64,000 nucleotides of DNA, taken from the NCBI GenBank assembly GCA_964388955.1, contig CAYMCO010000029.1, positions 1,197 to 65,196 of the forward strand. Reading direction: 5' to 3'. Shown piece by piece: positions 1 to 63,984 of this stretch. How positions within the stretch are numbered: the stretch's first letter is position 1; every line of letters starts with the position of its first letter. The DNA comes from an uncultured Anaerolineaceae bacterium. GTDB lineage: Bacteria > Chloroflexota > Anaerolineae > Anaerolineales > E44-bin32. The notes under the pieces were generated by a model. That model ran no database searches. It was not told the DNA's origin and worked only from the letters and a program-made list of their open reading frames with translations. The translations under genes and the position numbers were made by a program.

Positions 1-1
1 C

Positions 2-187
2 ATCCAGAAGCGCGTCACACCCCATACCTTCCGCCACAGCTTCGCCACCCACTTGCTCGAAGCCGGCTACGACATCCGCACCGTGCAGAACCTGCTCGGA
101 CATAAGGACGTGCGCACCACTATGATCTACACCCACGTGCTCCGGCGCGGGCCCTTCGCCGTTCGCAGCCCGCTCGATGCCGATTGA
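2..187 (+). CDS. Tyrosine recombinase, C-terminal fragment (integron-integrase-like); the 5' part lies left of the window
   Basis: Frame 2 reads [61 protein letters not shown], with the stop at 185-187. Box II carries the HxxR and catalytic Tyr. The tail [24 protein letters not shown]...VRSPLD resembles IntI1-type integrases. Confidence 0.8.
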
Positions 188-1779: not shown

Positions 1780-1811
1780 TGTTGCTCTGTTCCCCCCGCA
1801 GGAAGAATAAA

Positions 1812-1834
1812 GGGGCCCAGCAGCACTGGGCCCC
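1812..1834 (-). terminator. Intrinsic terminator hairpin between the convergent sulfotransferase and peroxiredoxin genes
   Basis: GGGGCCCAG-cagca-CTGGGCCCC forms a perfect 9-bp stem. On the minus strand it is followed by TTTATTCTT. There is no T-run on the plus strand. Confidence 0.6.
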
Positions 1835-1879
1835 TCATGTCAGCAATGGTCGGTATTGAATTGGTGCGGCGCCTGTTGC

Positions 1880-2500
1880 CTATGACCCTCCGTTCTCCGA
1901 CGGTTTCACCGGCTTCCATTCCTGCCACACCCGCCCTACCAGGCCCGGGCCCGGCGTGAGCGTGGGCTTTCCCGGCTGCCAGCCAGAGGGCGTCACCTCC
2001 CCGGTTGCGCGCACATGCTGGAAGGCTTTCACTTGGCGGACCAACTCATTCGGATTTCGACCCACTTCCGGCGTAAGCACCTCCATCGCCCGGATCACGA
2101 AATCCGGGTCGATGATGAATCGCCCCCGAATATCGACACCCGCCGCCTCGTCATAGACACCATAGATCGCCCCCACTTTGCCGCCTCCATCCGACAGCAT
2201 AGGGAACGGCACACCCCCTTCCAACATCTTGGTCAGCTCTTCCTCCTGCCATACCTTGTGCACGAACCGGCTGTCGGTGCTCATCGCCAACACCTCCACC
2301 CCCAGTCTCTGCAGCTCACCATACCGGGCGGCGACCGCCGCCAACTCGGTCGGTCAGACAAAGGTGAAGTCGCCCGGGTAGAAACACAGCACAATCCACT
2401 TTCCCCGGTAATCGGATAGCTTCACCGGTCGAAAACCCATCCCGTCGATGTAAGCGTTGGCTTCAAAATCGATCGCCTCTTGTCCCACCCGTGCTTGCAT
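1880..2500 (-). CDS. 2-Cys-type peroxiredoxin (AhpC/Prx family) with in-frame TGA (probable selenocysteine) at the peroxidatic position
   Basis: Track ORFs 2354..2698 and 1880..2344 are in the same frame and are separated only by TGA at 2354-2356. The joined sequence reads [26 protein letters not shown], matching the Prx motif FTFVCPTE. The start ATG at 2500 ([12 protein letters not shown]) has the RBS GGGAGGTGA and puts U at residue 49. An alternative start lies at 2605. Confidence 0.8.
2323..2356 (-). promoter_or_regulatory. UGA codon plus candidate bacterial SECIS hairpin
   Basis: Minus-strand RNA reads UGA CCG ACCG AGUU GGCGGC GGUC GCCGCC CGGU. It has a lower stem ACCG/CGGU, a 4-nt 5' bulge, an upper stem of 6 GC pairs and a GGUC loop. 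The hairpin starts 3 nt after the UGA and the apical loop lies about 17-20 nt downstream. Confidence 0.6.
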
Positions 2501-2891
2501 CGTCACCTCCCGCGATGTCGCGACTTCCTTGATCGTCTCGGGCTCCGCCGCAGGCAGGATCGGCCCGCGAGCGGGCTTGACGCACCCGTCTTTCATTTCC
2601 GCCATAGTCGGCCCCTTTCCTGGCACCCGTCTTCGCCCGCGTGTCCCCCCGCGCGACGAAGGCCGTCGCGGCGCATGATTCCGCCTCCTCTCCTCCAACG
2701 GAGGAAGAATTCAATCGTGCGGACCAAAGTGGATCTCCCCCCAGCGATGCGCGCCCTTCCCGTCATTGTGGGGGTGACTGGTCGCTTTCATCAGCCCAGC
2801 CCGCCCCCATCATATGGCCACTCGCGCCCGGCATCAATTCTCTCGGTCAAGCAGTATCGCAATCGCACCGTACCCCCGAAAAACCCGCCGA

Positions 2892-3560
2892 CTACTCGAT
2901 GGTGTCGAGGAAGGTTTGGGCCATCCCTGCCACATCCACTGTCGTAGGGATGCCCTCCCATGGATCCCCAGGACGCACCAGGTTCACCACCACCACACTC
3001 GCCCCGTTGAAGATCGCGCTGCGCGCCTCCTTCAAGTCAACGCCCCCGGCGGCCGATATCAATATGTCATATTTGCTCCGCACCCGGTTCACGTGCCGGT
3101 ATTCGATCACCTTGCCGCGCGTCCCCTCCTCATCCCGCCCGCGGTGCAAAACGACCACCTCCGGCGGCTTGCGCATGCGCATCACCACCTTCAACGGGTC
3201 GTTCACCCCCACCATGTCAATCATCGAGATCATTCCCCGCTCTTCACAGGTCGATACGAAGATGTCCAGTGTCTCCGTCGGGGCGTCCCCGAGCACCGTG
3301 ATCGCACCCGCCCCCGCCTGATCTGCCATGCGCACCTCGCCCTCGGCCCCGTCGGCCACTTTCATATCCGCTACCACGATCCCCGGCCACAGGCTGGCGA
3401 TGGCCTCTACCCCACGCATTCCTTCGCGTTTGATATACGGCGTGCCCGCCTCGATGAATATGCGGTGGCTCCGCGGGATCGCGGGGAGGATCTTCCGCAC
3501 CATGCGGATATCGTAGTTGAACGCGATCTGCAGATAGCGCTCCTTCGAATCCAGGATCAC
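2892..3560 (-). CDS. 3-hexulose-6-phosphate synthase-like / OMP decarboxylase (HUMPS) family protein
   Basis: 222 aa. YLQIAFNYD, IEAGTPYIKREGMRGVEAI, ADMKVADGAEGEV, AGAITVLG and ISAAGGVDLKEA match the HPS/KGPDC fold motifs by eye. Confidence 0.6.
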   Translation of the reverse strand: MILDSKERYLQIAFNYDIRMVRKILPAIPRSHRIFIEAGTPYIKREGMRGVEAIASLWPGIVVADMKVADGAEGEVRMADQAGAGAITVLGDAPTETLDIFVSTCEERGMISMIDMVGVNDPLKVVMRMRKPPEVVVLHRGRDEEGTRGKVIEYRHVNRVRSKYDILISAAGGVDLKEARSAIFNGASVVVVNLVRPGDPWEGIPTTVDVAGMAQTFLDTIE

Positions 3561-3563
3561 CGC

Positions 3564-4346
3564 TTACTTGTCCTCCTTGCCTCCCAGCAGCGAACCCATC
3601 GGCCCCGCCAGGTCAGAGGGCACAAAGAGCACGATCTTCTCGGAGGGGTCTGCTGCGATGTCCCGGATGGTCTGCAGTGTGCGCAGGTGCAGGGCCCCCG
3701 GGAACTTTGCCATGCGCTGCGCGGCTTCCACCAATTTCTCCGATGCGGTGAGCTCCCCTTGCGAGGCGATGATCACCGCCCGCCGCTCGCGCTCCGCCTC
3801 CGCTTGCTTGGCCATGGCGCGCTTCATTTCCGCCGGCAGCTCCACCTCCTGGATCTTGATCGACTCCACATCCACTCCCCACCCCGAAGTCTCGGCATCC
3901 ACGATCTTTTTGATGTTATCGGCGATGGCCTCCCGCTCTGTGAGCACAGTGTCCATCTCCTCGTTCCCGATCACGTCCCGCAGCGCCGCTTGCGTGTACT
4001 GCTGCACTGCAAATATGTGGTCTTCGATCTTGATGATCACATCCTCCGGGCTCACCACCCGGAAGTAGACCACCGCGTTGATCAGAAGCGGAATATTATC
4101 TTTGGTCATCACCTCCTGCCTTGGGATCTCCGCCGTCTTCAAACGCATGTCCACCTTGACCAGCGATTGAACGATGGGGAATATCAGCGTCACGCCGGGA
4201 TCTCGTGTCCCCGAATACCGGCCCAAGGTGAAAATGACCCCGCGCTCGTACTCATACAGCAGCCGCACGGAGCGCAACACCAAGACGGCAACCACCAACA
4301 GCAGCGCCACAAACACGCAGCCCCCAAAAGTCAGGAATTCAGGCAT
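3564..4346 (-). CDS. SPFH/band-7 (stomatin/slipin-like) membrane protein
   Basis: An N-terminal TM helix is followed by YERGVIFTLGRY...VDMRLKT...TKDNIPLLINAVVYFRV...RDVIG...GWGVDVESIKIQEVELPAEMKRAMAKQAEAERERRA. ATG at 4346 is preceded by GAGGAGGG. An alternative GTG lies at 4367. Confidence 0.9.
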   Translation of the reverse strand: MPEFLTFGGCVFVALLLVVAVLVLRSVRLLYEYERGVIFTLGRYSGTRDPGVTLIFPIVQSLVKVDMRLKTAEIPRQEVMTKDNIPLLINAVVYFRVVSPEDVIIKIEDHIFAVQQYTQAALRDVIGNEEMDTVLTEREAIADNIKKIVDAETSGWGVDVESIKIQEVELPAEMKRAMAKQAEAERERRAVIIASQGELTASEKLVEAAQRMAKFPGALHLRTLQTIRDIAADPSEKIVLFVPSDLAGPMGSLLGGKEDK

Positions 4347-19961: not shown

Positions 19962-21509
19962 TTATACAACTTCATCCCCCGCTTCAGTCCTCCCGGCACC
20001 CGCCTCCTCAGCCGCACCGTCCGGCGCCCGTTTGCGCATCACCTCCGTTCGCAGGTGTTGCCAGCTGCTTCGAACCCCTTGCAGGTCGATAACCTCGTCT
20101 GGGAACTCCCCGTAGCGCACCTTGTTGTACGCCTGGGTGATCAGCAGCGCCGCTGATTGGGCGTCGGGGTAGCTGAGTCGCAGACGGGAGGAGAACTCAA
20201 GTGGGGTCTCCGATGGCCTGCGCTCAATCCCACGCTCCGCCGCCAGCCGTAGGAACCGGGCGTATATCCGCCTGACGACGGATTCCAGCCAGCGCCTGCG
20301 CAAACCTGCCGCGAAACGCCGCGGGTCCAACGCCTCGCCCGCTCGGCGGAGGCGGTTCCGCAGATCATCCATGAGCGCCTGGCGCGAAAAGAGGCTTTCT
20401 CCCTCATCCGAGTCTTCCGCCCCAGACCGCCCCCCCTCCCGGCGCGCGAAAAGCACTACCCCGACCACCACCACAAGAAGAATGGCGCCCAACAGCAGCA
20501 AGATCAGGGTCTCCCCATGCGCGTTGATCCATGCGATCCAACCGGCATCCGCGCCGGTCCGGCGCTGGAGCTCGGACATCCAGTCCTGCACCTCGTTCAG
20601 ATCCAGAGGCCTCGGGATCTGGGTCTCATCGCCCGGATTGAAACTGCGCAGCGCCTGATAGATGGTGAGAAAAAGCACGAATAGCACCGGCGCCAGCACG
20701 AGCTGCAGCAGGGCGAACAGCCCCTTTCCGAACGTGCGCGCGACGTCGAACGCGGCGGAGGTGCCAAGCACCCTGCCTGCGAGGGCACCGGCGGCAATGG
20801 TCAACAACACCAGGGCCGCCAATCCCAACGCCCAGCCCCGGCCGAAGGGGTTCTGCCGCGCCCCGGGACCTCGGGCGATGCTCTGGGCGCGGCTGATCGA
20901 CATGGCCAGCAGCGCGGCGCCAAAGGCCAGCGGCAGGATTTCCAGCAGCGGCCGTACTCCGCCGCCTCGCTGGAATACTCCCTCGATCGCGAGCAACAAC
21001 ACAATCAACCGGAAGCGAAAGCCCACCCCCTGAGGCGACAATGGGGACGCCCCAGCTGCCGCGCCGCCGCGCCACCACGCGTATACAACGCCCATCAGCA
21101 CGACGATGACCACCACCAGCCGGTCGATCACCAAGTCCACCAGCCGGATGGGATCCGCGAACAACACCCCCAAGCTCGTATCCAGATTGGATAGGATTAT
21201 CGCCTGCATGGCAATCGCCAACAGTCCCAGCAGGGCCATGGTTTGAACCACATCTCGCAGAATCGCCGGGAGCCCTGCGCCCGCCATCCAGCGATTGCCA
21301 TACAGCGCCAGCAGGGCGATGGCGGCCAGCAGCGCCGTCGCGCCGAAAGTGCTCCATCCTCGCAGCGGTGACATTGTCGTCCGGAAGACCGGGACAACCC
21401 AGCTCAACTCCATCAACAACGCGAAGTAAATCCCCAGCTCATGCTGCGTCGCCCACCTGAAGAGCCCGCCCCCTTGACGGGTCCCGCTCTCGGCTGCAGT
21501 TCCGGTCAT
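19962..21509 (-). CDS. DUF4129-domain polytopic membrane protein (no transglutaminase core)
   Basis: 515 aa with many TM helices. The C-terminal PSETPLEFSSRLRLSYPDAQSAALLITQAYNKVRYGEFP is DUF4129-like. The protein contains no Cys at all, so it has no TGase catalytic Cys. Confidence 0.7.
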   Translation of the reverse strand: MTGTAAESGTRQGGGLFRWATQHELGIYFALLMELSWVVPVFRTTMSPLRGWSTFGATALLAAIALLALYGNRWMAGAGLPAILRDVVQTMALLGLLAIAMQAIILSNLDTSLGVLFADPIRLVDLVIDRLVVVIVVLMGVVYAWWRGGAAAGASPLSPQGVGFRFRLIVLLLAIEGVFQRGGGVRPLLEILPLAFGAALLAMSISRAQSIARGPGARQNPFGRGWALGLAALVLLTIAAGALAGRVLGTSAAFDVARTFGKGLFALLQLVLAPVLFVLFLTIYQALRSFNPGDETQIPRPLDLNEVQDWMSELQRRTGADAGWIAWINAHGETLILLLLGAILLVVVVGVVLFARREGGRSGAEDSDEGESLFSRQALMDDLRNRLRRAGEALDPRRFAAGLRRRWLESVVRRIYARFLRLAAERGIERRPSETPLEFSSRLRLSYPDAQSAALLITQAYNKVRYGEFPDEVIDLQGVRSSWQHLRTEVMRKRAPDGAAEEAGAGRTEAGDEVV

Positions 21510-22717
21510 GGCACCACCTCGAACTGGTCCAACGGCCGATGAATAACATCCACACCCGGGACAAACGGCGGTGCTTCCTCAGCCAGTGAGAAGACCACGC
21601 ACCGCCGTGTGCGGGCCCGGAGGCGGAGAAGCGCTTCCAGCAATTCTGGAGGCGTAATGCCGGTGACCACCAGCAACGTCGAGCCGTACTCCAGATGCGG
21701 AGCCTGCTGAAGCAGGAATTGTTCAAAGGGCGCAGATACGAACGGGGTCAACGCAGCCAGCATCTCGAGGATTTGCGGGAGATGGCGTGGGGACCGCCCC
21801 GGCGGGATCCGAAAAGGCTGTGCCCCACGGGCCACCGCCCCGTTGGATATCAAGCCCACCCTGAATCCCTGCTCGTAAGCTTCCATGATCAGGGAGGCCG
21901 CGGTCACCACCAGCGCCTCCAGCATTTCGGGCAGATACCCCATCCAATAGCGGGCCAAGGTGGTCACGTTGAGACAGACGATCAGATCCGTGCCCGACAC
22001 CGGCTGGAACACCCGGCTCTGCAGCTCACCGGTGCGTGCGGTAGCGGGCCAATGGATACGGCGAAATCCATCCTGCGGTTGATAGTCCCGCACTCCGATC
22101 GGTTGGGTGACATCTTCGAACAGCCTGCGCCGGCTGCTCCGCACCCCAAAGGGATCCTCGGCCCGCAGGCCCAACTCACGCACCGGCCGGACCTTCGGGA
22201 AGACCACCAATTGCTCCTGCTTCTCCCCCACCTTCTCCGAATAGAAGAGCCCAAAAGGGTCGCCGGATCGCAGCATCACCGGCCCGACTCGATACAAACC
22301 CCGGGTCCTAAAGAGCAGTTCAAAGGAACGCCGCACCTTGGCGAAGCCGCGCATCACGAGCACCAGACTTAGGGCGCCTTCGCCGCCCCCCTCTCCCTGC
22401 TCCGAAAAGGCCGCGTCCGTCGGGCTGACCTCATACGGCCATGGATCAACGCATTTCAGCCACGCCAGGGGGAAGAGTTTACGGTTTTCCACCTCGATTT
22501 CTACGCCCACGCTCTCGCCTGGAAAGGCCCGCCGGTACTGCGGGCGGCGGGCATGGCGCACCTCTCGCAGAGCCTCGCGGTTCCACAACCAGGAGAATGC
22601 CAGCACGACACCCATCATTCCGACCAGCGCCAGCACACCGGTCGAGCCGAGCAGGTAGCCAAGTATTAAGAGGAAGACCGTCAGCCGTACCCAGGCCTCG
22701 CTCAGCGTTACCCGCAT
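21506..22717 (-). CDS. DUF58 domain protein (vWA-like, MoxR partner)
   Basis: VRDYQPQDGFRRIHWPATARTGELQSRVF is the DUF58 signature. The start MRVTLSEAW at 22717 has two TM helices. The gene overlaps the 5' start (ATG at 21509) of the downstream DUF4129 gene by 4 nt. Confidence 0.85.
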   Translation of the reverse strand: MRVTLSEAWVRLTVFLLILGYLLGSTGVLALVGMMGVVLAFSWLWNREALREVRHARRPQYRRAFPGESVGVEIEVENRKLFPLAWLKCVDPWPYEVSPTDAAFSEQGEGGGEGALSLVLVMRGFAKVRRSFELLFRTRGLYRVGPVMLRSGDPFGLFYSEKVGEKQEQLVVFPKVRPVRELGLRAEDPFGVRSSRRRLFEDVTQPIGVRDYQPQDGFRRIHWPATARTGELQSRVFQPVSGTDLIVCLNVTTLARYWMGYLPEMLEALVVTAASLIMEAYEQGFRVGLISNGAVARGAQPFRIPPGRSPRHLPQILEMLAALTPFVSAPFEQFLLQQAPHLEYGSTLLVVTGITPPELLEALLRLRARTRRCVVFSLAEEAPPFVPGVDVIHRPLDQFEVVP

Positions 22718-22721
22718 ACAC

Positions 22722-23663
22722 TCACTCTTCCACGGGGACCGGCACTCCGGAGACCACGTCGTCAACGAGGTCTGCGACCTCCCGGCCCCTCAGCTGTGCC
22801 TGCGGCGATATCATCAACCGGTGGGTGAGCACAAACGGGGCCATCCGCTTGACATCGTCAGGGATGACGTATTCCCGGCCCTGGATCGCCGCCCATGCCT
22901 GCGCCATCATGAACAACCCCAGGGTCGCGCGTGGGCTGGCGCCGAGGTCGATTTCCGGGTTTTCACGCGTCGCCCGGGCGACGGCGACGACATAATTGCG
23001 CACCGAGGTTTCCAGGCGCACGTCCTGCCGCAGGCGCCCCAGCTCCAGGATTTCCTCCGGGCTGGTAACCGCCCCCAAGGAGGCCAGCGGATCCCCCGCC
23101 CGGAAGCGCACCAGGATGTCGTTTTCCTCCGCTTCGTCCGGATAGCCGATCACCAGGCGCATTAAGAACCGATCCAGCTGCGCCTCGGGCAGGGGGAACG
23201 TACCCTCCAACTCGACCGGGTTCTGAGTCGCCAGGACCAGAAAAGGGCGCGGCACCCCGCGGGACACGCCGTCCACCGTCACCTGCCGCTCCTGCATCGC
23301 CTCCAGCAAAGCAGACTGGGTGCGCGGGGTGGCGCGGTTGATCTCGTCCGCCAGGACGATCTGGCTCATCACAGGCCCCGGACGGTATTCAAAGCTCTGC
23401 ATTTTCTGGTTGAACCAGTTGATTCCCGTCACATCAGAGGGCAGCAGATCGGGCGTGAACTGGATCCGCTGAAATGTGCAGCCGAGCGATGCCGCAAGAG
23501 AGCGCGCCAACGTCGTCTTCCCGATTCCCGGGACATCCTCCAGCAGGATATGCCCCTCGCACAAGACCGCCGCCAACGCCATATCGATGACCTCACCCTT
23601 GCCGACGATCACCTGCTGTATGTTTTCGCGGATCCTCCGCGCCACCTGGCTGACTTTTCCCAT
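22722..23663 (-). CDS. MoxR-family AAA+ ATPase
   Basis: 313 aa starting from MGKVSQVARRI. Walker A LLEDVPGIGKTTLA, Walker B VLADEINRATPRTQSALLEAMQE and LVLATQNP are present. The rest of the 660-aa track ORF is an antisense artefact. Confidence 0.9.
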   Translation of the reverse strand: MGKVSQVARRIRENIQQVIVGKGEVIDMALAAVLCEGHILLEDVPGIGKTTLARSLAASLGCTFQRIQFTPDLLPSDVTGINWFNQKMQSFEYRPGPVMSQIVLADEINRATPRTQSALLEAMQERQVTVDGVSRGVPRPFLVLATQNPVELEGTFPLPEAQLDRFLMRLVIGYPDEAEENDILVRFRAGDPLASLGAVTSPEEILELGRLRQDVRLETSVRNYVVAVARATRENPEIDLGASPRATLGLFMMAQAWAAIQGREYVIPDDVKRMAPFVLTHRLMISPQAQLRGREVADLVDDVVSGVPVPVEE

Positions 23664-23725
23664 GTCTCGCCTCTTGTCCCTCACCCCTTCGAGGCGCGAG
23701 TATAGCATGGATCGCGGGGCCCCAA

Positions 23726-23734
23726 TGTTATAAT
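23726..23734 (+). promoter_or_regulatory. Extended -10 promoter for dinG
   Basis: TGtTATAAT at 23726-23734. The ATG at 23748 lies 13 nt downstream, so the leader is very short. Confidence 0.45.
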
Positions 23735-23747
23735 CCAAGACCACAGG

Positions 23748-26534
23748 ATGAGAACACTGGTCGCGCTCGATGTGGAAACCACAGGATTGGACCCGGAACG
23801 CGATGCCATTATCGAGTTTGGCGCCGTGCGCTTCCGAGATACCCACGTGGAAGAGCCATTTCACCGACTGATCAACCCCGGCCGTCCCCTTCCCCCCGAG
23901 ATCGTCAACCTCACCGGTATCACCGACGACATGCTCGCCGGAGCGCCGCGCATGACCCGGGTGCTCGACGACATTAGATCGTACGTCGGCGATGACCCGA
24001 TCCTCGGCCACAGCGTCCAATTCGATCTCGCTTTTCTCCAGCCCAAAGGGCTGTTCCGCGACAATCAGCGCCTGGACACCTATGATCTGGCCTCCGTATT
24101 GATGCCCTCCGCCGCCCGCTACAGTCTTTCTGCTCTGGCGAGCGCCCTTGCGGTGCCCGTCCGGGAGACGCATCGTGCCCTCGACGACGCCCAGACCACC
24201 CGCATGGTCTTCATGCGCCTGATGGACATCGTACGAGAGCTCCCCTGGGAGCTGGTGGAGGAGATCACCCGTCTCGGCGCTGAGGTGGAGTGGGGCGCGG
24301 GGTTCATCTTCGACGAAGTGTTCGAGGACCTGCGCGACCGCGCACCGGCGCTGCGCCACGAGGCCTTCCACCTGTCTTTTCCCGGGCCGGATGCACTTGG
24401 AGATCCGATCGTCCCGAGAGACCCGCCGCAACCTCTGGACCCGGAGGCGTTGTCGGCGCTCATCGAACCGGGAGGCGCGGTGGCCGAGAATTTCCCCGCC
24501 TATGAACACCGGGCAGAGCAGATAGCCATGCTGCAGGCCGTGGCCCAGGCGCTGTCCGAAAGCCAACACCTGCTGGTGGAGGCCGGCACAGGCATCGGGA
24601 AATCCCTGGCCTACCTGATCCCTGCCTTCGCCTGGGCGGAGCGCAACGGGGAGCGCGTGGTGGTCTCCACCAACACCATCAATCTCCAGGACCAGCTCAT
24701 CCACAAGGACGTCCCCGACCTGGACCAGGCCCTAGGGAAGGACTATCGGGCTGCGGTGCTCAAGGGCCGCGCCAATTACCTGTGTCCGCGCAGGCTTTCC
24801 GCCCTCCGGCGAGTCGGCCCCGGATCCGCGGAGGAGATGCGGGTGCTGGCCAAGGTGCTGGTATGGCTGGCTCGCGACGGAACCGGCGATCGAACCGAGA
24901 TCACTCTGCGCGGGCCGGGAGAGGCCGCCGTTTGGTCGTCTTTGTCCTCGGACAGCCCGGAGTGTTCCCCGGACTCCTGCCACGCCTTTGGGGAAGGCGC
25001 TTGTCCCTACTACTTCGCCCGCCAGGCCGCCGAGCGGGCGCACGTGGTGATCGTCAACCACGCGCTTCTGCTGGCGGATATCATGGCCGGCAACCGCGTG
25101 ATTCCCGAATTCCGCTACTTGATTGTGGACGAGGCCCATCACCTGGAATCCGCCACCACCCAGTCCATGCGGCTGCGGGTGACCGAATCCGAAATCAGCC
25201 GCCTGCTGCGCGCCATCGACCGCGCCCGGGACGGTCTGCCGGGTCGTATGGTTGAAATCGCGCGCGCCGAACTGAAGCCGGAGGCATTGGAGAGGGTGCG
25301 CAGCGCCTCGGTCGAGATCGCCCAGAGGGCCCGGGAATGCCAGAGGATGGCTTCGGCGTTCTTTTCGGCCGTGGGTGAGTTCCTCGCCGAGCAGCGGGAG
25401 GGCGCCGATATCGGCCCGTATCCGCAGCAGGTGCGAATCACTCCTTCCACCCGCACTCTCCCGGGGTGGACACCCGTCGAGATCAGCCTGGATGATCTGA
25501 CTCCACCGCTTTCGGACCTCTCCGCAAGGCTGATCAGCATTGGGGACGAATTGGCTGAGCTGGGCGCCCGGGGCTCCAGCGCCGCCGAGGATCTGGCGGT
25601 GTCCGTCCGCGGTCTTGGCCGGGATCTGGGCGAGATACACGATCAGCTCACGCATATCGTCTTCGACCCCGCCAACAATGTGGTCTATTGGGCGGAGATC
25701 CACCCCAGGGCAATGGCGCCCTCTCTGAACGCCGCGCCGCTGGAGATCGGGACCATGGTGCAGCGCTTTCTGTGGCACGAAAAAGAATCGGTGATCATGA
25801 CCTCCGCCACGCTCACCACTGCGGGCGAATTCGATTACATGCGCCAGCGCTTGATGGCACAGGAGGCCGAGGAGTTGGCCTTGGGATCGCCCTTCGACTA
25901 CGAGAACTCGGCCATGTTGTACCTGATCAACGACATTCCAGAGCCCAACGATCGGCGCAGATACCAATATGCGGTCGAGAAAGGCCTGACCGGATTGTGC
26001 AAAGCCACCGGGGGGCGGGCCCTGGTGCTGTTCACTTCCTACAACCAACTCCGGCGCACCTCCCAAGCCATCTCGGGCCCGCTCGCCAACTACGGCATTG
26101 TGGTCTACGAGCAGGGGGAGGGCGCCTCCCGACACGCCCTTCTGGAGAGCTTCCGGACAACCGATCAGGCGGTTCTGCTGGGCACCCGCTCCTTCTGGGA
26201 GGGTGTGGACGTCCCCGGGCCGGCGCTCTCCGTGCTCGCGCTCATCCGGCTGCCCTTCGACGTGCCCAGCGACCCCATCATCGCCGCACGCTCCGAGACC
26301 TACGAGTCCCCCTTCGATCAGTACGCCGTTCCCGAGGCCGTCCTTCGTTTCCGGCAAGGCTTCGGGCGGTTGATTCGCACCCGTTCGGACCGCGGAGTTG
26401 TGGCGGTTTTCGACGTGCGCGTGCTGACCAAGAACTACGGACGAGCCTTCATCGACTCGCTCCCACGCTGTACCGTGCGCCGCGGCCCGCTCGCCAACCT
26501 TCCCAGTGCTGCCGCTCGCTGGCTGGGGATATAG
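23748..26534 (+). CDS. dinG: DnaQ-like 3'-5' exonuclease fused to a DinG-family ATP-dependent DNA helicase
   Basis: The N-terminus LVALDVETTGLDPERDAIIEFGAV...HRALDDAQ carries the Exo I-III motifs. It is followed by EAGTGIGKSLAYL (Walker A), DEAHHLE, a 4-Cys region and C-terminal helicase motifs. Confidence 0.9.
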   Translation: MRTLVALDVETTGLDPERDAIIEFGAVRFRDTHVEEPFHRLINPGRPLPPEIVNLTGITDDMLAGAPRMTRVLDDIRSYVGDDPILGHSVQFDLAFLQPKGLFRDNQRLDTYDLASVLMPSAARYSLSALASALAVPVRETHRALDDAQTTRMVFMRLMDIVRELPWELVEEITRLGAEVEWGAGFIFDEVFEDLRDRAPALRHEAFHLSFPGPDALGDPIVPRDPPQPLDPEALSALIEPGGAVAENFPAYEHRAEQIAMLQAVAQALSESQHLLVEAGTGIGKSLAYLIPAFAWAERNGERVVVSTNTINLQDQLIHKDVPDLDQALGKDYRAAVLKGRANYLCPRRLSALRRVGPGSAEEMRVLAKVLVWLARDGTGDRTEITLRGPGEAAVWSSLSSDSPECSPDSCHAFGEGACPYYFARQAAERAHVVIVNHALLLADIMAGNRVIPEFRYLIVDEAHHLESATTQSMRLRVTESEISRLLRAIDRARDGLPGRMVEIARAELKPEALERVRSASVEIAQRARECQRMASAFFSAVGEFLAEQREGADIGPYPQQVRITPSTRTLPGWTPVEISLDDLTPPLSDLSARLISIGDELAELGARGSSAAEDLAVSVRGLGRDLGEIHDQLTHIVFDPANNVVYWAEIHPRAMAPSLNAAPLEIGTMVQRFLWHEKESVIMTSATLTTAGEFDYMRQRLMAQEAEELALGSPFDYENSAMLYLINDIPEPNDRRRYQYAVEKGLTGLCKATGGRALVLFTSYNQLRRTSQAISGPLANYGIVVYEQGEGASRHALLESFRTTDQAVLLGTRSFWEGVDVPGPALSVLALIRLPFDVPSDPIIAARSETYESPFDQYAVPEAVLRFRQGFGRLIRTRSDRGVVAVFDVRVLTKNYGRAFIDSLPRCTVRRGPLANLPSAAARWLGI

Positions 26535-26608
26535 GCGCACCGCGCTGTGCGGCATGCGCGGCGCGCGAAGGACGACCGGCATTGGGCCACGCGCCGTAAT
26601 CCGGATGG

Positions 26609-26670
26609 CGAACGACAGGGCTTTCGAGCGCCGTGAACGTGCCAACGTGCAACGTGTAACGCCTGACCCG
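26609..26670. repeat. Dispersed intergenic repeat module with an AACGTG array (copy A)
   Basis: CGAACGACAGGGC...AACGTG at 26636, 26644 and 26651 (period 8 then 7)...GACCCG. It parallels 39928-40015. Confidence 0.6.
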
Positions 26671-61275: not shown

Positions 61276-63984
61276 CTATTGCCCGCCATAGACCTGTACC
61301 GCACTGAGAAGCCTGTTGCCCACCGACCTCACCACCGCCGGATCCCCTTCCTCCAGACCCATCACGGCGGCAATCGCCCCCTCCGGCCGTGACACGGCCA
61401 GCATGAACCAACCGACTCCCTCCCCGCTTTCGCCACCGATCGCTTGCCCCTGGGTGGCGTAGCTTCCAGGAGCAACTTGGAACCATCCCTGTGCGGCCGC
61501 GGCCGTCTCGGCCGACAGGGCTCTCCGGGCTTCTGCGGTGACATCCGACTCCTGCCAGGTTCCATCGGGCATCCGTACCGAGTCCACCAGCCGCACCGCG
61601 GGAAGCGCACCAGCGTTGAACAGGGAGGACCAGGCGCGCGCCATCTGCAGAGGTGTGACGGTGAGAGTGCCCTGGCCGAACGCCTCCGCCCTAATCTCAT
61701 CTCGCGTGGAGGGAGCCGAGAGCTCGGCTGCCGGCGCCTCGGGCAGGAGCACGCCCGTGGGCTCGGCCAAGCCGAAGCCGCCGATCATATCCATCAACAC
61801 CTGGCCGGTGAAACTATCGCTGATCTGCACAAAGGGAGCCGGGCAACCCGAGCGAAAGGCCGCCGCCAAATCCTCTTCACCGGCGGTCACCGGCCACAAG
61901 CACTCCAGCTCCTGGCCATCGATCTGGATCGGCGCCTGGAGATCAAGCTCTGAGGGGAGGCCGGAAGGTGGGAGCAGATCGTGTTCTTGGGCCCACGCGG
62001 CCAGGAACGGCGCCATCGCCAGGCCGGGCTGGTAGCGCGCCTGGGTCGCCCGGTTCAGGAGCGGCGCATCATCCCGTTCGCGCAGCACCGTCCACTGCTC
62101 TTCCAGCCTTCCTGGGTCAAAGGAGGGCGCGGATGCCATCGCCAGCACTTCCCCGCTCCGCGCCTCCATGATCACGATCGCGCCGCGGCGCCCCTTCAAT
62201 ATCCTTTCCGCGGCCCGCTGCAGCGCCAAGTCCAGTGTCAGACGGACGTTCAGACCTGGAGGTGGAAATCCGGTCAGCATCTGCTGGCGGGCAATAAGCC
62301 AGGGGTCGTAACCGCGCTCCCCTCGCAGCCAGGGGTCCAGACTCCCCTCCAACCCAGCCTTGCCCAGCGCCAGCGAATCATAGCCCACCACGTGCGTCGC
62401 AGCTAAGGCCGGATAGAACCGCTCAAAGCCCTCCGCCTCGCGGCGGGACTCAGCGAGCGGGATATCGAGCCGATCCAGAATGCTGCCCCGCCTCACGTAC
62501 AGGCTGGCAGTCGCTGGCCGGGGGTTGTCGGCACGTGAAATCAGGCTATCCCGCTGCGCCACGCTCCACCAGCCCACCATCAGCGCCAGGCAGGCCAGCA
62601 TGGTGCCAAGTCCAAGTTGGATGGCGCGCAGAGGTGGCCGCATGGGAGACCAGCCCCCTCGCTCATCGGACAGCCGCAGCAGGAACCCCAGTGCAATGAA
62701 ACTGGTGAGCAGCGAGGAACCGCCGTACGAAACGAAAGGAAGCGTGACGCCGGTCAGGGGGAACAGGCGGATCACGCCTCCGATGATCAGCACCGATTGC
62801 AGCCCAAAAGCGGTAGCCAGACCTGCGGCAAGCAGTTTGGCGAAGACATCTCGGTGACCCATCGCCGCTTTCAGCCCGCGTGAGACCAATACAGCGATCA
62901 AGCCCAAAGCAGCCAGCCCGCCGGCCAACCCCCATTCTTCCACCAGGGCCGCAAATATGAAATCGGTGTGAGCTGCAGGGACAAAACCCGGGGATCCCAG
63001 GCCGGGCCCGCTGCCGGTCACCCCACCTGAGGCGAGCGCGATCAGGGATTGCACGGTTTGGTAGGAGCCGCCTAGGGGGTCCAACCAGGGGTTGAGCCAA
63101 GCCTGAAAGCGAATCCTGACCACCGAAAAAAGCATGCTGCCCAGCGCGCCGCCCAGGCCGATGACGCCGGCCCCAGCCAGCAGGACCTGCCATCGGCCGG
63201 AGGTCAGATAGAGTAGGACCGCCAGCAAGGCCACGAAGAGCGATCCCGTCCCCAGGTCGCGCTGCGCCACCAACAGGCCGATGGATAGGCCCCATACGGC
63301 CAGCACCGGCGCGAGGAGCGGCAGAATCGAGCCATCCGATGGGTCCCCTGCCTTCATACGTTCGGAAAAATAAGAGGCCAGGAAAGCAATCAGCAGCAGC
63401 CGGAGCGGCTCTGAGGGTTGGAAATAGATACCGCAGCATCCCAGCCACAGGCGCGGCTCGCCGCCGGAGGGATGGGTGCCAAAGACCAGGGTGAGCGAGG
63501 TCAGGAGCAGCCCTCCTGTCCACCAGAGATACCGATACCTGCGCAGCCAGCGCAGGTCATTCGGGCTGTGTACGATCCCCACCAGCGCAAGTGTGCCCAC
63601 GGCCATCCACACCAATTGGCGCGCGCCGAATGCGGGATACAATCGCCAGATCAGCAGGATGCCCCACCCGGTGAGCAGCATCCCCACCGGCAGCAGATAC
63701 GGATCGCGCCAAGGGACCTTGCGCCGCAGCGACCAGCGGATGATGCTCGCGCACACTGCCCAACCGGGAAGCACCAGCGCCATTCCCAGCCGCGCCCGCG
63801 AAGCCACCCACGCCCCTTGGCGGGCCGCAGGAGCTAGGTTCAGGCCGATGACCGTGGCGAGCAGAAAGCCGAACGCGAGGCAAAGAAGAACCGCCTCGCG
63901 TCGATCAACTCGCCGCTCGTCGTCAATCAAGATACTTCTCAACAAATATCCCCAGCCTCCGGCGCGCTGATTCAGGGATCGCAT
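61276..63984 (-). CDS. Fusion of a SEDS glycosyltransferase (FtsW/RodA family) to a class-B PBP-like domain
   Basis: The N-terminal approximately 470 aa is polytopic with HTDFIFAALVEEWG and PFVSYGGSS (SEDS motifs). The C-terminal approximately 430 aa has PBP2 dimerisation/TPase-like blocks: RGSILDR, HVVGY, GLEGSLD, LTLDLALQ, VLAMASAPSFDP and FGQGTLTVTPLQMA. Confidence 0.85.
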   Translation of the reverse strand: MRSLNQRAGGWGYLLRSILIDDERRVDRREAVLLCLAFGFLLATVIGLNLAPAARQGAWVASRARLGMALVLPGWAVCASIIRWSLRRKVPWRDPYLLPVGMLLTGWGILLIWRLYPAFGARQLVWMAVGTLALVGIVHSPNDLRWLRRYRYLWWTGGLLLTSLTLVFGTHPSGGEPRLWLGCCGIYFQPSEPLRLLLIAFLASYFSERMKAGDPSDGSILPLLAPVLAVWGLSIGLLVAQRDLGTGSLFVALLAVLLYLTSGRWQVLLAGAGVIGLGGALGSMLFSVVRIRFQAWLNPWLDPLGGSYQTVQSLIALASGGVTGSGPGLGSPGFVPAAHTDFIFAALVEEWGLAGGLAALGLIAVLVSRGLKAAMGHRDVFAKLLAAGLATAFGLQSVLIIGGVIRLFPLTGVTLPFVSYGGSSLLTSFIALGFLLRLSDERGGWSPMRPPLRAIQLGLGTMLACLALMVGWWSVAQRDSLISRADNPRPATASLYVRRGSILDRLDIPLAESRREAEGFERFYPALAATHVVGYDSLALGKAGLEGSLDPWLRGERGYDPWLIARQQMLTGFPPPGLNVRLTLDLALQRAAERILKGRRGAIVIMEARSGEVLAMASAPSFDPGRLEEQWTVLRERDDAPLLNRATQARYQPGLAMAPFLAAWAQEHDLLPPSGLPSELDLQAPIQIDGQELECLWPVTAGEEDLAAAFRSGCPAPFVQISDSFTGQVLMDMIGGFGLAEPTGVLLPEAPAAELSAPSTRDEIRAEAFGQGTLTVTPLQMARAWSSLFNAGALPAVRLVDSVRMPDGTWQESDVTAEARRALSAETAAAAQGWFQVAPGSYATQGQAIGGESGEGVGWFMLAVSRPEGAIAAVMGLEEGDPAVVRSVGNRLLSAVQVYGGQ

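Follow-up and report, generated by a model that had tools for sequence, protein, structure and literature searches.

The window analysed here is a 64,000-nucleotide stretch of DNA from an uncultured Anaerolineaceae bacterium (GenBank assembly GCA_964388955.1, contig CAYMCO010000029.1), and its minus strand carries a peroxiredoxin (Prx) gene with a TGA codon inside the active site. Two open reading frames (ORFs) of this strand, 2354..2698 and 1880..2344, share one frame, the sole interruption being the TGA at 2356-2354. Only CCG ACC GAG (P-T-E) lies between the two ORFs, and the joined active-site block reads FTFV[TGA]PTE. We interpret window positions 2605..1880 (minus strand) as one intact, functional gene for a selenocysteine (Sec)-containing peroxiredoxin of the PrxU family, a reading to which we assign a probability of roughly 0.9. 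The principal features of the gene are listed below in the order of transcription.

2603..2605, minus strand: upstream (long-form) start codon ATG, giving a 241-residue product with Sec as residue 84; placed by profile coverage and conservation
2498..2500, minus strand: internal start codon ATG (the start chosen in an earlier note on this DNA), giving a 206-residue short form with Sec49
2087..2488, minus strand: AhpC/TSA peroxiredoxin domain, long-form residues 40-173 (Pfam PF00578, E = 1.5e-36)
2354..2356, minus strand: in-frame TGA in the column of the peroxidatic Cys, proposed to encode Sec84 in the long form and Sec49 in the short form; TGA in 79 of 80 loci
2316..2356, minus strand: candidate selenocysteine insertion sequence (SECIS) element, with an upper stem of 6 bp at 2342-2327 and the apical loop GGUC at 2336-2333; supported by folds and covariation
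1952..2026, minus strand: 1-cysPrx_C C-terminal domain, long-form residues 194-218 (Pfam PF10417, E = 7e-9)
1991..1993, minus strand: Thr205 in GEVTPSGW, where typical 2-Cys Prx and AhpC have their C-terminal resolving Cys (EVCP)
1880..1882, minus strand: true stop codon TAG

The earlier note had described the two ORFs as a single frame split solely by the TGA at 2354-2356, and its coordinates proved correct on re-translation: positions 2500..1880 (minus strand) yield 206 residues with one internal stop, and the TGA is codon 49 from ATG 2500. Among 31 window genes checked, PrxU alone has an internal in-frame stop. The prediction that annotation pipelines would fragment the gene is borne out by the public gene calls for the same contig, which cut it into pieces of 83 and 134 residues; relatives are also split by Prodigal-type calls. 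Taken at face value, the two genes of the standard calls would encode separate polypeptides, the 83-residue N-fragment and a C-fragment, forming a split Prx that lacks a catalytic chalcogen. This arrangement is scarcely credible: the break would fall inside the active-site turn and remove the catalytic residue, sequence conservation is continuous over the junction, and no Shine-Dalgarno (SD) sequence or conserved start follows the TGA, where gene callers pick TTG, ATG or a later Met inconsistently.

The family assignment is based on profile searches in which Cys was substituted for the in-frame stop. Translated from ATG 2605, the protein scores 375.3 bits with the NCBIfam equivalog model NF040737 (peroxi_PrxU; cutoff 270) and aligns over positions 2-231 of the 233 in the profile, and the score from ATG 2500 is 360.3 bits. 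The next-best NCBIfam model, AhpC TIGR03137, gives about 177-178 bits and falls below its cutoff of 272. The earlier identification of a peroxiredoxin is thus confirmed and narrowed to PrxU, at 375 bits against 270. The AhpC/TSA domain contains Cys74 (2386-2384), the P77xxxT81xxU84 block and the catalytic Arg in IRGRFIID, which aligns with YRGLFIID of Prx2. Human Prx2 (7kj1, E = 6e-45) and AhpC (1we0, E = 1e-44) are the closest solved structures, and the PxxxTxxC block is aligned with both. An AlphaFold2 (AF2) model of a homologue with 82% identity (P0002) has a predicted template modelling score (pTM) of 0.83 and a confident core.

The active-site motif P77-G-D-F-T81-F-V-[TGA]84 places the TGA at the Sec position of PrxU; a PxxxTxxU/C motif is given for Sec-containing Prx in PMC13188914. 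Sequence and fold are of the AhpC/Prx1 type, and the C-terminal resolving Cys that defines a typical 2-Cys Prx is missing. No Cys was found at the resolving (EVCP) position among the 120 best homologues where the motif could be located, and the Cys ten residues before the TGA (Cys74) is nearly always present in homologues. Alignment to Prx homologues, which the earlier note had proposed as a check, gives Cys or TGA at the column of the catalytic Cys of the FTFVCPTE block across relatives, in agreement with the placement made from the motif.

Homologous loci were collected by a scan with one genome per species, from which the best 80 loci were kept (65-82% identical). These belong mostly to Anaerolineae and also include Desulfobacterota, Acidobacteriota, Desulfacinum hydrothermale and Desulfothermobacter acidiphilus. 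The codon is TGA in 79 of the 80 and TGC in one (L038), frame and sequence are kept on both sides, and conservation runs unbroken across the TGA junction. At the protein level, 54 of the 120 best hits have W in the catalytic column and 41 have Cys, and about 15 more are fragments that begin directly behind this column. A single W case was checked (L108:586-1308) and proved to be TGA translated under an alternative code by a metagenome gene caller. TGA serves as the terminal stop of 13 of 31 window genes, among them clpX, rlmN and recG with products that match their profiles to the end, and has therefore not been reassigned. Over 11 kb that include the TGA, the window is identical to an independent Logan assembly of run SRR14802573. 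Of the outcomes named in advance as grounds for doubt, two were TGC or TGT on resequencing and separate truncated genes in relatives; the independent assembly has TGA, and relatives conserve both halves across it.

Taken together, the conserved TGA, the intact halves, the normal TGA stops and the second assembly make a pseudogene, an assembly error and a reassignment all very unlikely. A pseudogene would be a Prx inactivated by a nonsense mutation of its catalytic Cys codon; TGC and TGT are each one base change away from TGA, there are relatives of the Cys type (41 of the 120 best protein hits; L038, L084, L085), and no Sec machinery is seen within the window. We consider it highly improbable, as the TGA is common to 79 of 80 relatives, both halves are under purifying selection in one frame, a covarying hairpin occupies the SECIS position, and the start signals and terminator are intact. 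The source is a metagenome-assembled contig, and one relative (L038) has TGC between the same flanks, both of which would be compatible with a sequencing or assembly error that masks a true TGC or TGT; this is exceedingly unlikely given a separate Logan assembly that is identical over 11 kb and the prevalence of TGA as the rule among relatives. The codon might also be read outside the Sec pathway, through reassignment to Trp or Gly or through near-cognate read-through with Trp or Cys. Although W stands at the codon in 54 of 120 public protein calls, this too is very improbable: TGA terminates 13 of 31 window genes (clpX, rlmN and recG with their profiles complete), an enzyme with Trp as its peroxidatic residue would be inactive, the one W call checked is TGA, and simple read-through needs no conserved SECIS-type hairpin. 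As an observation on public protein collections in its own right, the W at the catalytic column of 54 of 120 homologues looks like a systematic selenoprotein annotation artefact.

Directly downstream of the TGA, the predicted minimum free energy fold has the UGA in a lower stem, followed by a one-sided internal loop of 4 nt, a 6-bp upper stem (GGCGGC/GCCGCC) and a GGUC apical loop. The upper stem starts 11 nt past the UGA, and 17 nt separate the UGA from the loop. The stem-bulge-stem with a GGUC loop at 2323-2350 that had been drawn earlier matches pairs 13-40 of this fold. Of 200 shuffled versions of the 42-nt element, 197 fold less well than the element itself (z = -2.8). Both published rules for bacterial SECIS elements describe the hairpin, namely an apical loop 16-37 nt from the UGA (PMC10778597) and a stem of 6-8 bp whose loop has a conserved G some 20 nt past the UGA (PMC4605307).

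Covariation was evaluated in an alignment of the 60 nt from the TGA in 81 TGA sequences, in which stem columns 15-20 pair with 25-30 and the loop occupies columns 21-24. For the apical loop, 45 sequences have GGUC and 34 (about 42% of relatives) have AGUU. In a set of 80 distinct sequences, pairing is kept in 94.3% of cells, and the covariation of 0.351 compares with 0.185 in shuffles, none of 500 reaching 0.351; controls with slid partners are also lower. Cells changed on both sides number 70, against 23.7 +/- 5.5 in shuffles. The synonymous pair of columns 18-27 is GC in 61, AU in 15, GU in 3 and CG in 1 of the 80 sequences and is never unpaired, while 74 of the 80 keep the pair of columns 15-30. 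The first and fourth loop positions (columns 21/24; window 2336/2333) likewise covary, as G..C in 44, A..U in 34 and other combinations in 2. Such a pattern would be consistent with these two bases closing the loop as a pair, so that a G-U dinucleotide is extruded between them and recognised by SelB. Loop positions 2-3 are always GU, with the G 19 nt past the UGA, although this is not independent evidence since a Val codon also fixes these letters. In Cys-type controls, which encode the same F-T-F-V-C-P-T-E-L-x-A-V-A peptide with TGY at the codon, complementarity at the two synonymous pairs drops to 14 of 21 and 13 of 21 distinct sequences, a loss of pairing relative to the TGA sequences with a Fisher p of 7e-6. 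These results support a SECIS-type element, which would be bound by SelB.

Several observations weigh against this interpretation of the hairpin and of the gene. A 73-nt piece folds no better than shuffles (z = -0.5) in this sequence of 62% GC. Four of the six stem pairs are set by the first two positions of Ala, Ala, Val, Ala and Ala codons, which leaves columns 15-30, 18-27 and 21-24 as the only informative ones. The Cys-type controls are for the most part members of a sister subfamily, not strict orthologues, and Cys forms within the PrxU subfamily itself (L038, L103, L104, L107) still keep the hairpin, as is expected for recent Sec-to-Cys changes. The RNAalifold consensus recovers the top three pairs only. 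Rfam searches at gathering and permissive thresholds gave no match at the hairpin, which is uninformative as the library is not known to include a bacterial SECIS model. Finally, none of selA, selB, selD and tRNA-Sec was detected in the 64-kb window by ARAGORN, Rfam and family scans, the SelA/SelB/SelD family scan having covered about 30 window ORFs, including every plausible ORF of at least 320 residues. The one tRNA in the window is a tRNA-Leu.

A link to Sec decoding is seen in a related genome. In the Anaerolineaceae metagenome-assembled genome (MAG) HK-STAS-CHLO-41 (L066), a tRNA-Sec at 2849-2944 (plus strand) lies 57 nt upstream of a TGA-containing PrxU gene at 3001-3678 on the same strand. 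This tRNA was identified by ARAGORN and by Rfam model RF01852 (67 bits, gathering score 47). The genes flanking the pair are not sel genes, and the pairing was not seen at the other 79 loci. The earlier note expected Sec-decoding machinery in the genome of the window, and the tRNA-Sec of L066 is the best indirect support for it. The PrxU gene marks this Anaerolineae organism as a probable selenium user. A six-frame scan of the window for TGA-joined ORF pairs found nothing convincing as a second selenoprotein, and most pairs were spurious or antisense ORFs in this 62% GC sequence.

The N-terminal region of the gene carries two start sites and a conserved tail, and further signals lie at either end of the gene:

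2809..2837, minus strand: sigma-70-like promoter candidate TTGATG-17-TATGAT, some 200 nt before the long-form start codon; based solely on consensus matching, with 1 hit where 0.3 would be expected
2558..2593, minus strand: conserved N-terminal tail motif, residues K5-16, including Cys8 (2584-2582)
2503..2511, minus strand: internal Shine-Dalgarno sequence GGGAGGTGA, with the core GGAGG at 2510-2506, 5 nt before ATG 2500
1801..1836, minus strand: intrinsic-terminator-like hairpin with a 12-bp stem, GAGGGGCCCAG...CTGGGCCCCTT, followed by a T-rich tail

The PrxU profile is covered in full only by translation from ATG 2605, which raises the score from 360 to 375 bits, and the public call for the 83-residue fragment begins at this codon. 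A Met stands 7 residues before the tail Cys in 67 of 80 relatives, with the consensus AAAGGAGG upstream of this ATG. The window's own SD before ATG 2605 is weak (GGAAAGGGG, 2620-2612). The tail itself, with the consensus M-x-E-x-K-D-G-C-V-x-P-A-x-G-P-I, is present in 80 of 82 TGA loci, all 80 of which keep its Cys and the Gly at +6. Within the tail, the first two codon positions hardly vary and the third is close to random, a pattern that points to a translated peptide under purifying selection. The motif is followed by a variable linker of about 20 residues (residues 17-35), always in frame. In the AF2 model of P0002, the tail has a predicted local distance difference test (pLDDT) score of about 72 and the linker falls below 50 (disordered).

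The internal start is also conserved. Its codon is kept as ATG in 74, GTG in 6 and TTG in 1 of 83 loci, and GGAGG occurs at -18..-4 in 76 of the 83, compared with 3.4% of background windows. The internal GGAGG survives in differing frames and with differing amino acids (QEV, KEV, KEE, KGG, AGGE, RRE), and the Glu codon at this site is GAG, though in the remainder of these genes 54% of Glu codons are GAA. The nucleotides themselves are thus constrained, which suggests an internal Shine-Dalgarno sequence. Many public gene calls are 197-201 residues in length, approximately that expected from ATG 2500. The earlier choice of ATG 2500 as the start therefore holds in part: it is a conserved SD-AUG site, but a conserved ATG at 2605 lies upstream and adds a 35-residue tail. 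From these signals, it is likely that two isoforms are made, a tailed form of 241 residues and a core form of 206 residues, with use of both starts predicted from their conservation. The literature searched contained no description of an N-terminal Cys tail or a dual start in this family, and on the PrxU mechanism or the tail it yielded nothing beyond citations of Sohling 2001; the search did not include the primary paper of 2001, and this absence is consequently weak evidence of novelty.

Just upstream, a 27-codon ORF is found in another frame (window 2593-2676, minus strand), preceded by a strong SD-like sequence, GGAGGAGAGGAGG. It ends in a TGA that overlaps codons 4-5 of PrxU in its long form, and the ORF could couple translation to the weakly SD-preceded ATG 2605.

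In the decoding scheme that we propose, the UGA at 2356-2354 would be read as Sec, the SECIS element within the ORF recruiting SelB with Sec-tRNASec. Sec insertion at this codon is itself inferred from the sequence features described above. By established Prx and selenoprotein chemistry, the selenolate at PxxxTxxU would attack the peroxide to give a selenenic acid, which a thiol would resolve, and thioredoxin would presumably reduce the product, a reductant suggested by the family name only. With Thr205 in place of the usual C-terminal Cys, resolution most likely falls to either of two cysteines conserved in the family, Cys74, ten residues before Sec, or the tethered Cys8 of the N-terminal tail.

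A more specific proposal joins the two start sites with the tail: two isoforms would be produced from the two SD-AUG sites, and Cys8, within DGCVxPAxGPI and on its flexible tether of about 20 residues, would resolve the selenenic acid of Sec84 in place of the lost Cys. We regard this combined model as possible and put it forward tentatively, as the less probable outcome. If true, resolution by Cys8 would represent a previously undescribed resolving-Cys architecture for peroxiredoxins of the AhpC/Prx1 class, and the ratio of tailed to untailed subunits could tune activity.

The surrounding genes of the window are largely housekeeping genes, including a suf operon, ppdK, tig, clpX, a likely clpP, rlmN, recG, pyrG and ffh. 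The nearest named relatives of SufB are from Anaerolineales MAGs (83-86% identity). Synteny was absent, in that the neighbours of PrxU in the window have no counterparts beside PrxU in the 80 genome loci, and the gene may therefore border a mobile or variable region. Window positions 1-187 (plus strand) hold the 3' end of a gene of the tyrosine recombinase (phage integrase) family (cf. L001:366-1421). After the recombinase end come an ORF of 183 residues of unknown function and then a sulfotransferase gene, which adjoin PrxU.

Two further loci of the window are of separate interest. An ORF of 902 residues (61276-63984, minus strand) fuses an FtsW/RodA/SpoVE-type domain (residues 119-441) to the dimerisation and transpeptidase domains of a penicillin-binding protein (PBP; residues 499-837), with the SEDS polymerase and its class B PBP partner apparently joined in one polypeptide. 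A run of overlapping genes at 19962-26645 (minus strand) encodes a DUF4129 protein, a DUF58 protein, a protein of 660 residues with a C-terminal AAA/chelatase-like ATPase region and one of 637 residues without a family match, and resembles a MoxR-type cluster.

Peroxiredoxins with Sec are well established. Surveys counted 12 genes in 2006 (PMC1794560) and 91 in 78 organisms in 2016 (PMC5029168), and a review of 2026 lists the family with a TxxU motif (PMC13188914). A Sec-containing Prx was purified from Eubacterium (Peptoclostridium) acidaminophilum in 2001 (Sohling 2001, cited in that review). The surveys and the dedicated NCBI equivalog model agree with the earlier statement that Sec-peroxiredoxins such as PrxU of E. 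acidaminophilum were already known. The gene is a member of an already known selenoprotein family, among the commoner ones in bacteria, and for this reason adds little by itself. The features that deserve attention are family-wide, namely the near-invariant N-terminal Cys tail, the internal ribosome-binding site and the compact, covarying SECIS. Standard callers give two fragments or a Trp-containing protein for what is a working selenoprotein gene under our interpretation, and a covariance model built from the SECIS alignment could serve to find SECIS elements of the PrxU type.

The PrxU of E. acidaminophilum has 203 residues, about the size of the short form. It shares with the gene described here the AhpC/Prx1-type fold, the UGA/Sec at PxxxTxxU and the lack of a canonical C-terminal resolving Cys. 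The present gene differs in its origin from an uncultured Anaerolineae bacterium, its 35-residue N-terminal tail with a near-invariant Cys and its second, internal start; the NCBIfam PrxU profile (233 positions) includes the N-terminal tail. The hairpin was compared with the E. coli fdhF SECIS by means of a 42-nt fdhF sequence that is present in the fdhF of 5,419 of 5,426 E. coli genomes. Direct folding gave the same spacing and loop, in accord with the resemblance noted earlier: both hairpins lie within the ORF and have an 11-nt spacer after the UGA, a stem start at +15 and a GGUC loop. Unlike fdhF, the upper stem has 6 perfect pairs without the bulged U, and the lower structure is not conserved among PrxU relatives, some of which extend the stem through UUG/CAA.

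Compared with typical 2-Cys peroxiredoxins such as human Prx2 and bacterial AhpC, the protein retains the catalytic Pro, Thr and Arg and the C-terminal GEVxPxGW arm, but has Sec as the proposed replacement for the peroxidatic Cys (Cp), Thr for the Cys of EVCP, and extra cysteines at Cp-10 and in the tail. The sister Cys-type subfamily (metagenome L086-L102, L106) shares the FTFVCPTEL[T/A]AVA block (FTFVCPTELTAVA) and the overall length with PrxU. In contrast to PrxU, it has Cys (TGY) at Cp, no N-terminal tail and Tyr for the Cys at Cp-10, and its complementarity at the synonymous sites of the hairpin is relaxed. It also carries two conserved cysteines of its own, in KACAY and GKVCEIW, which suggests that this subfamily uses a different resolving arrangement.

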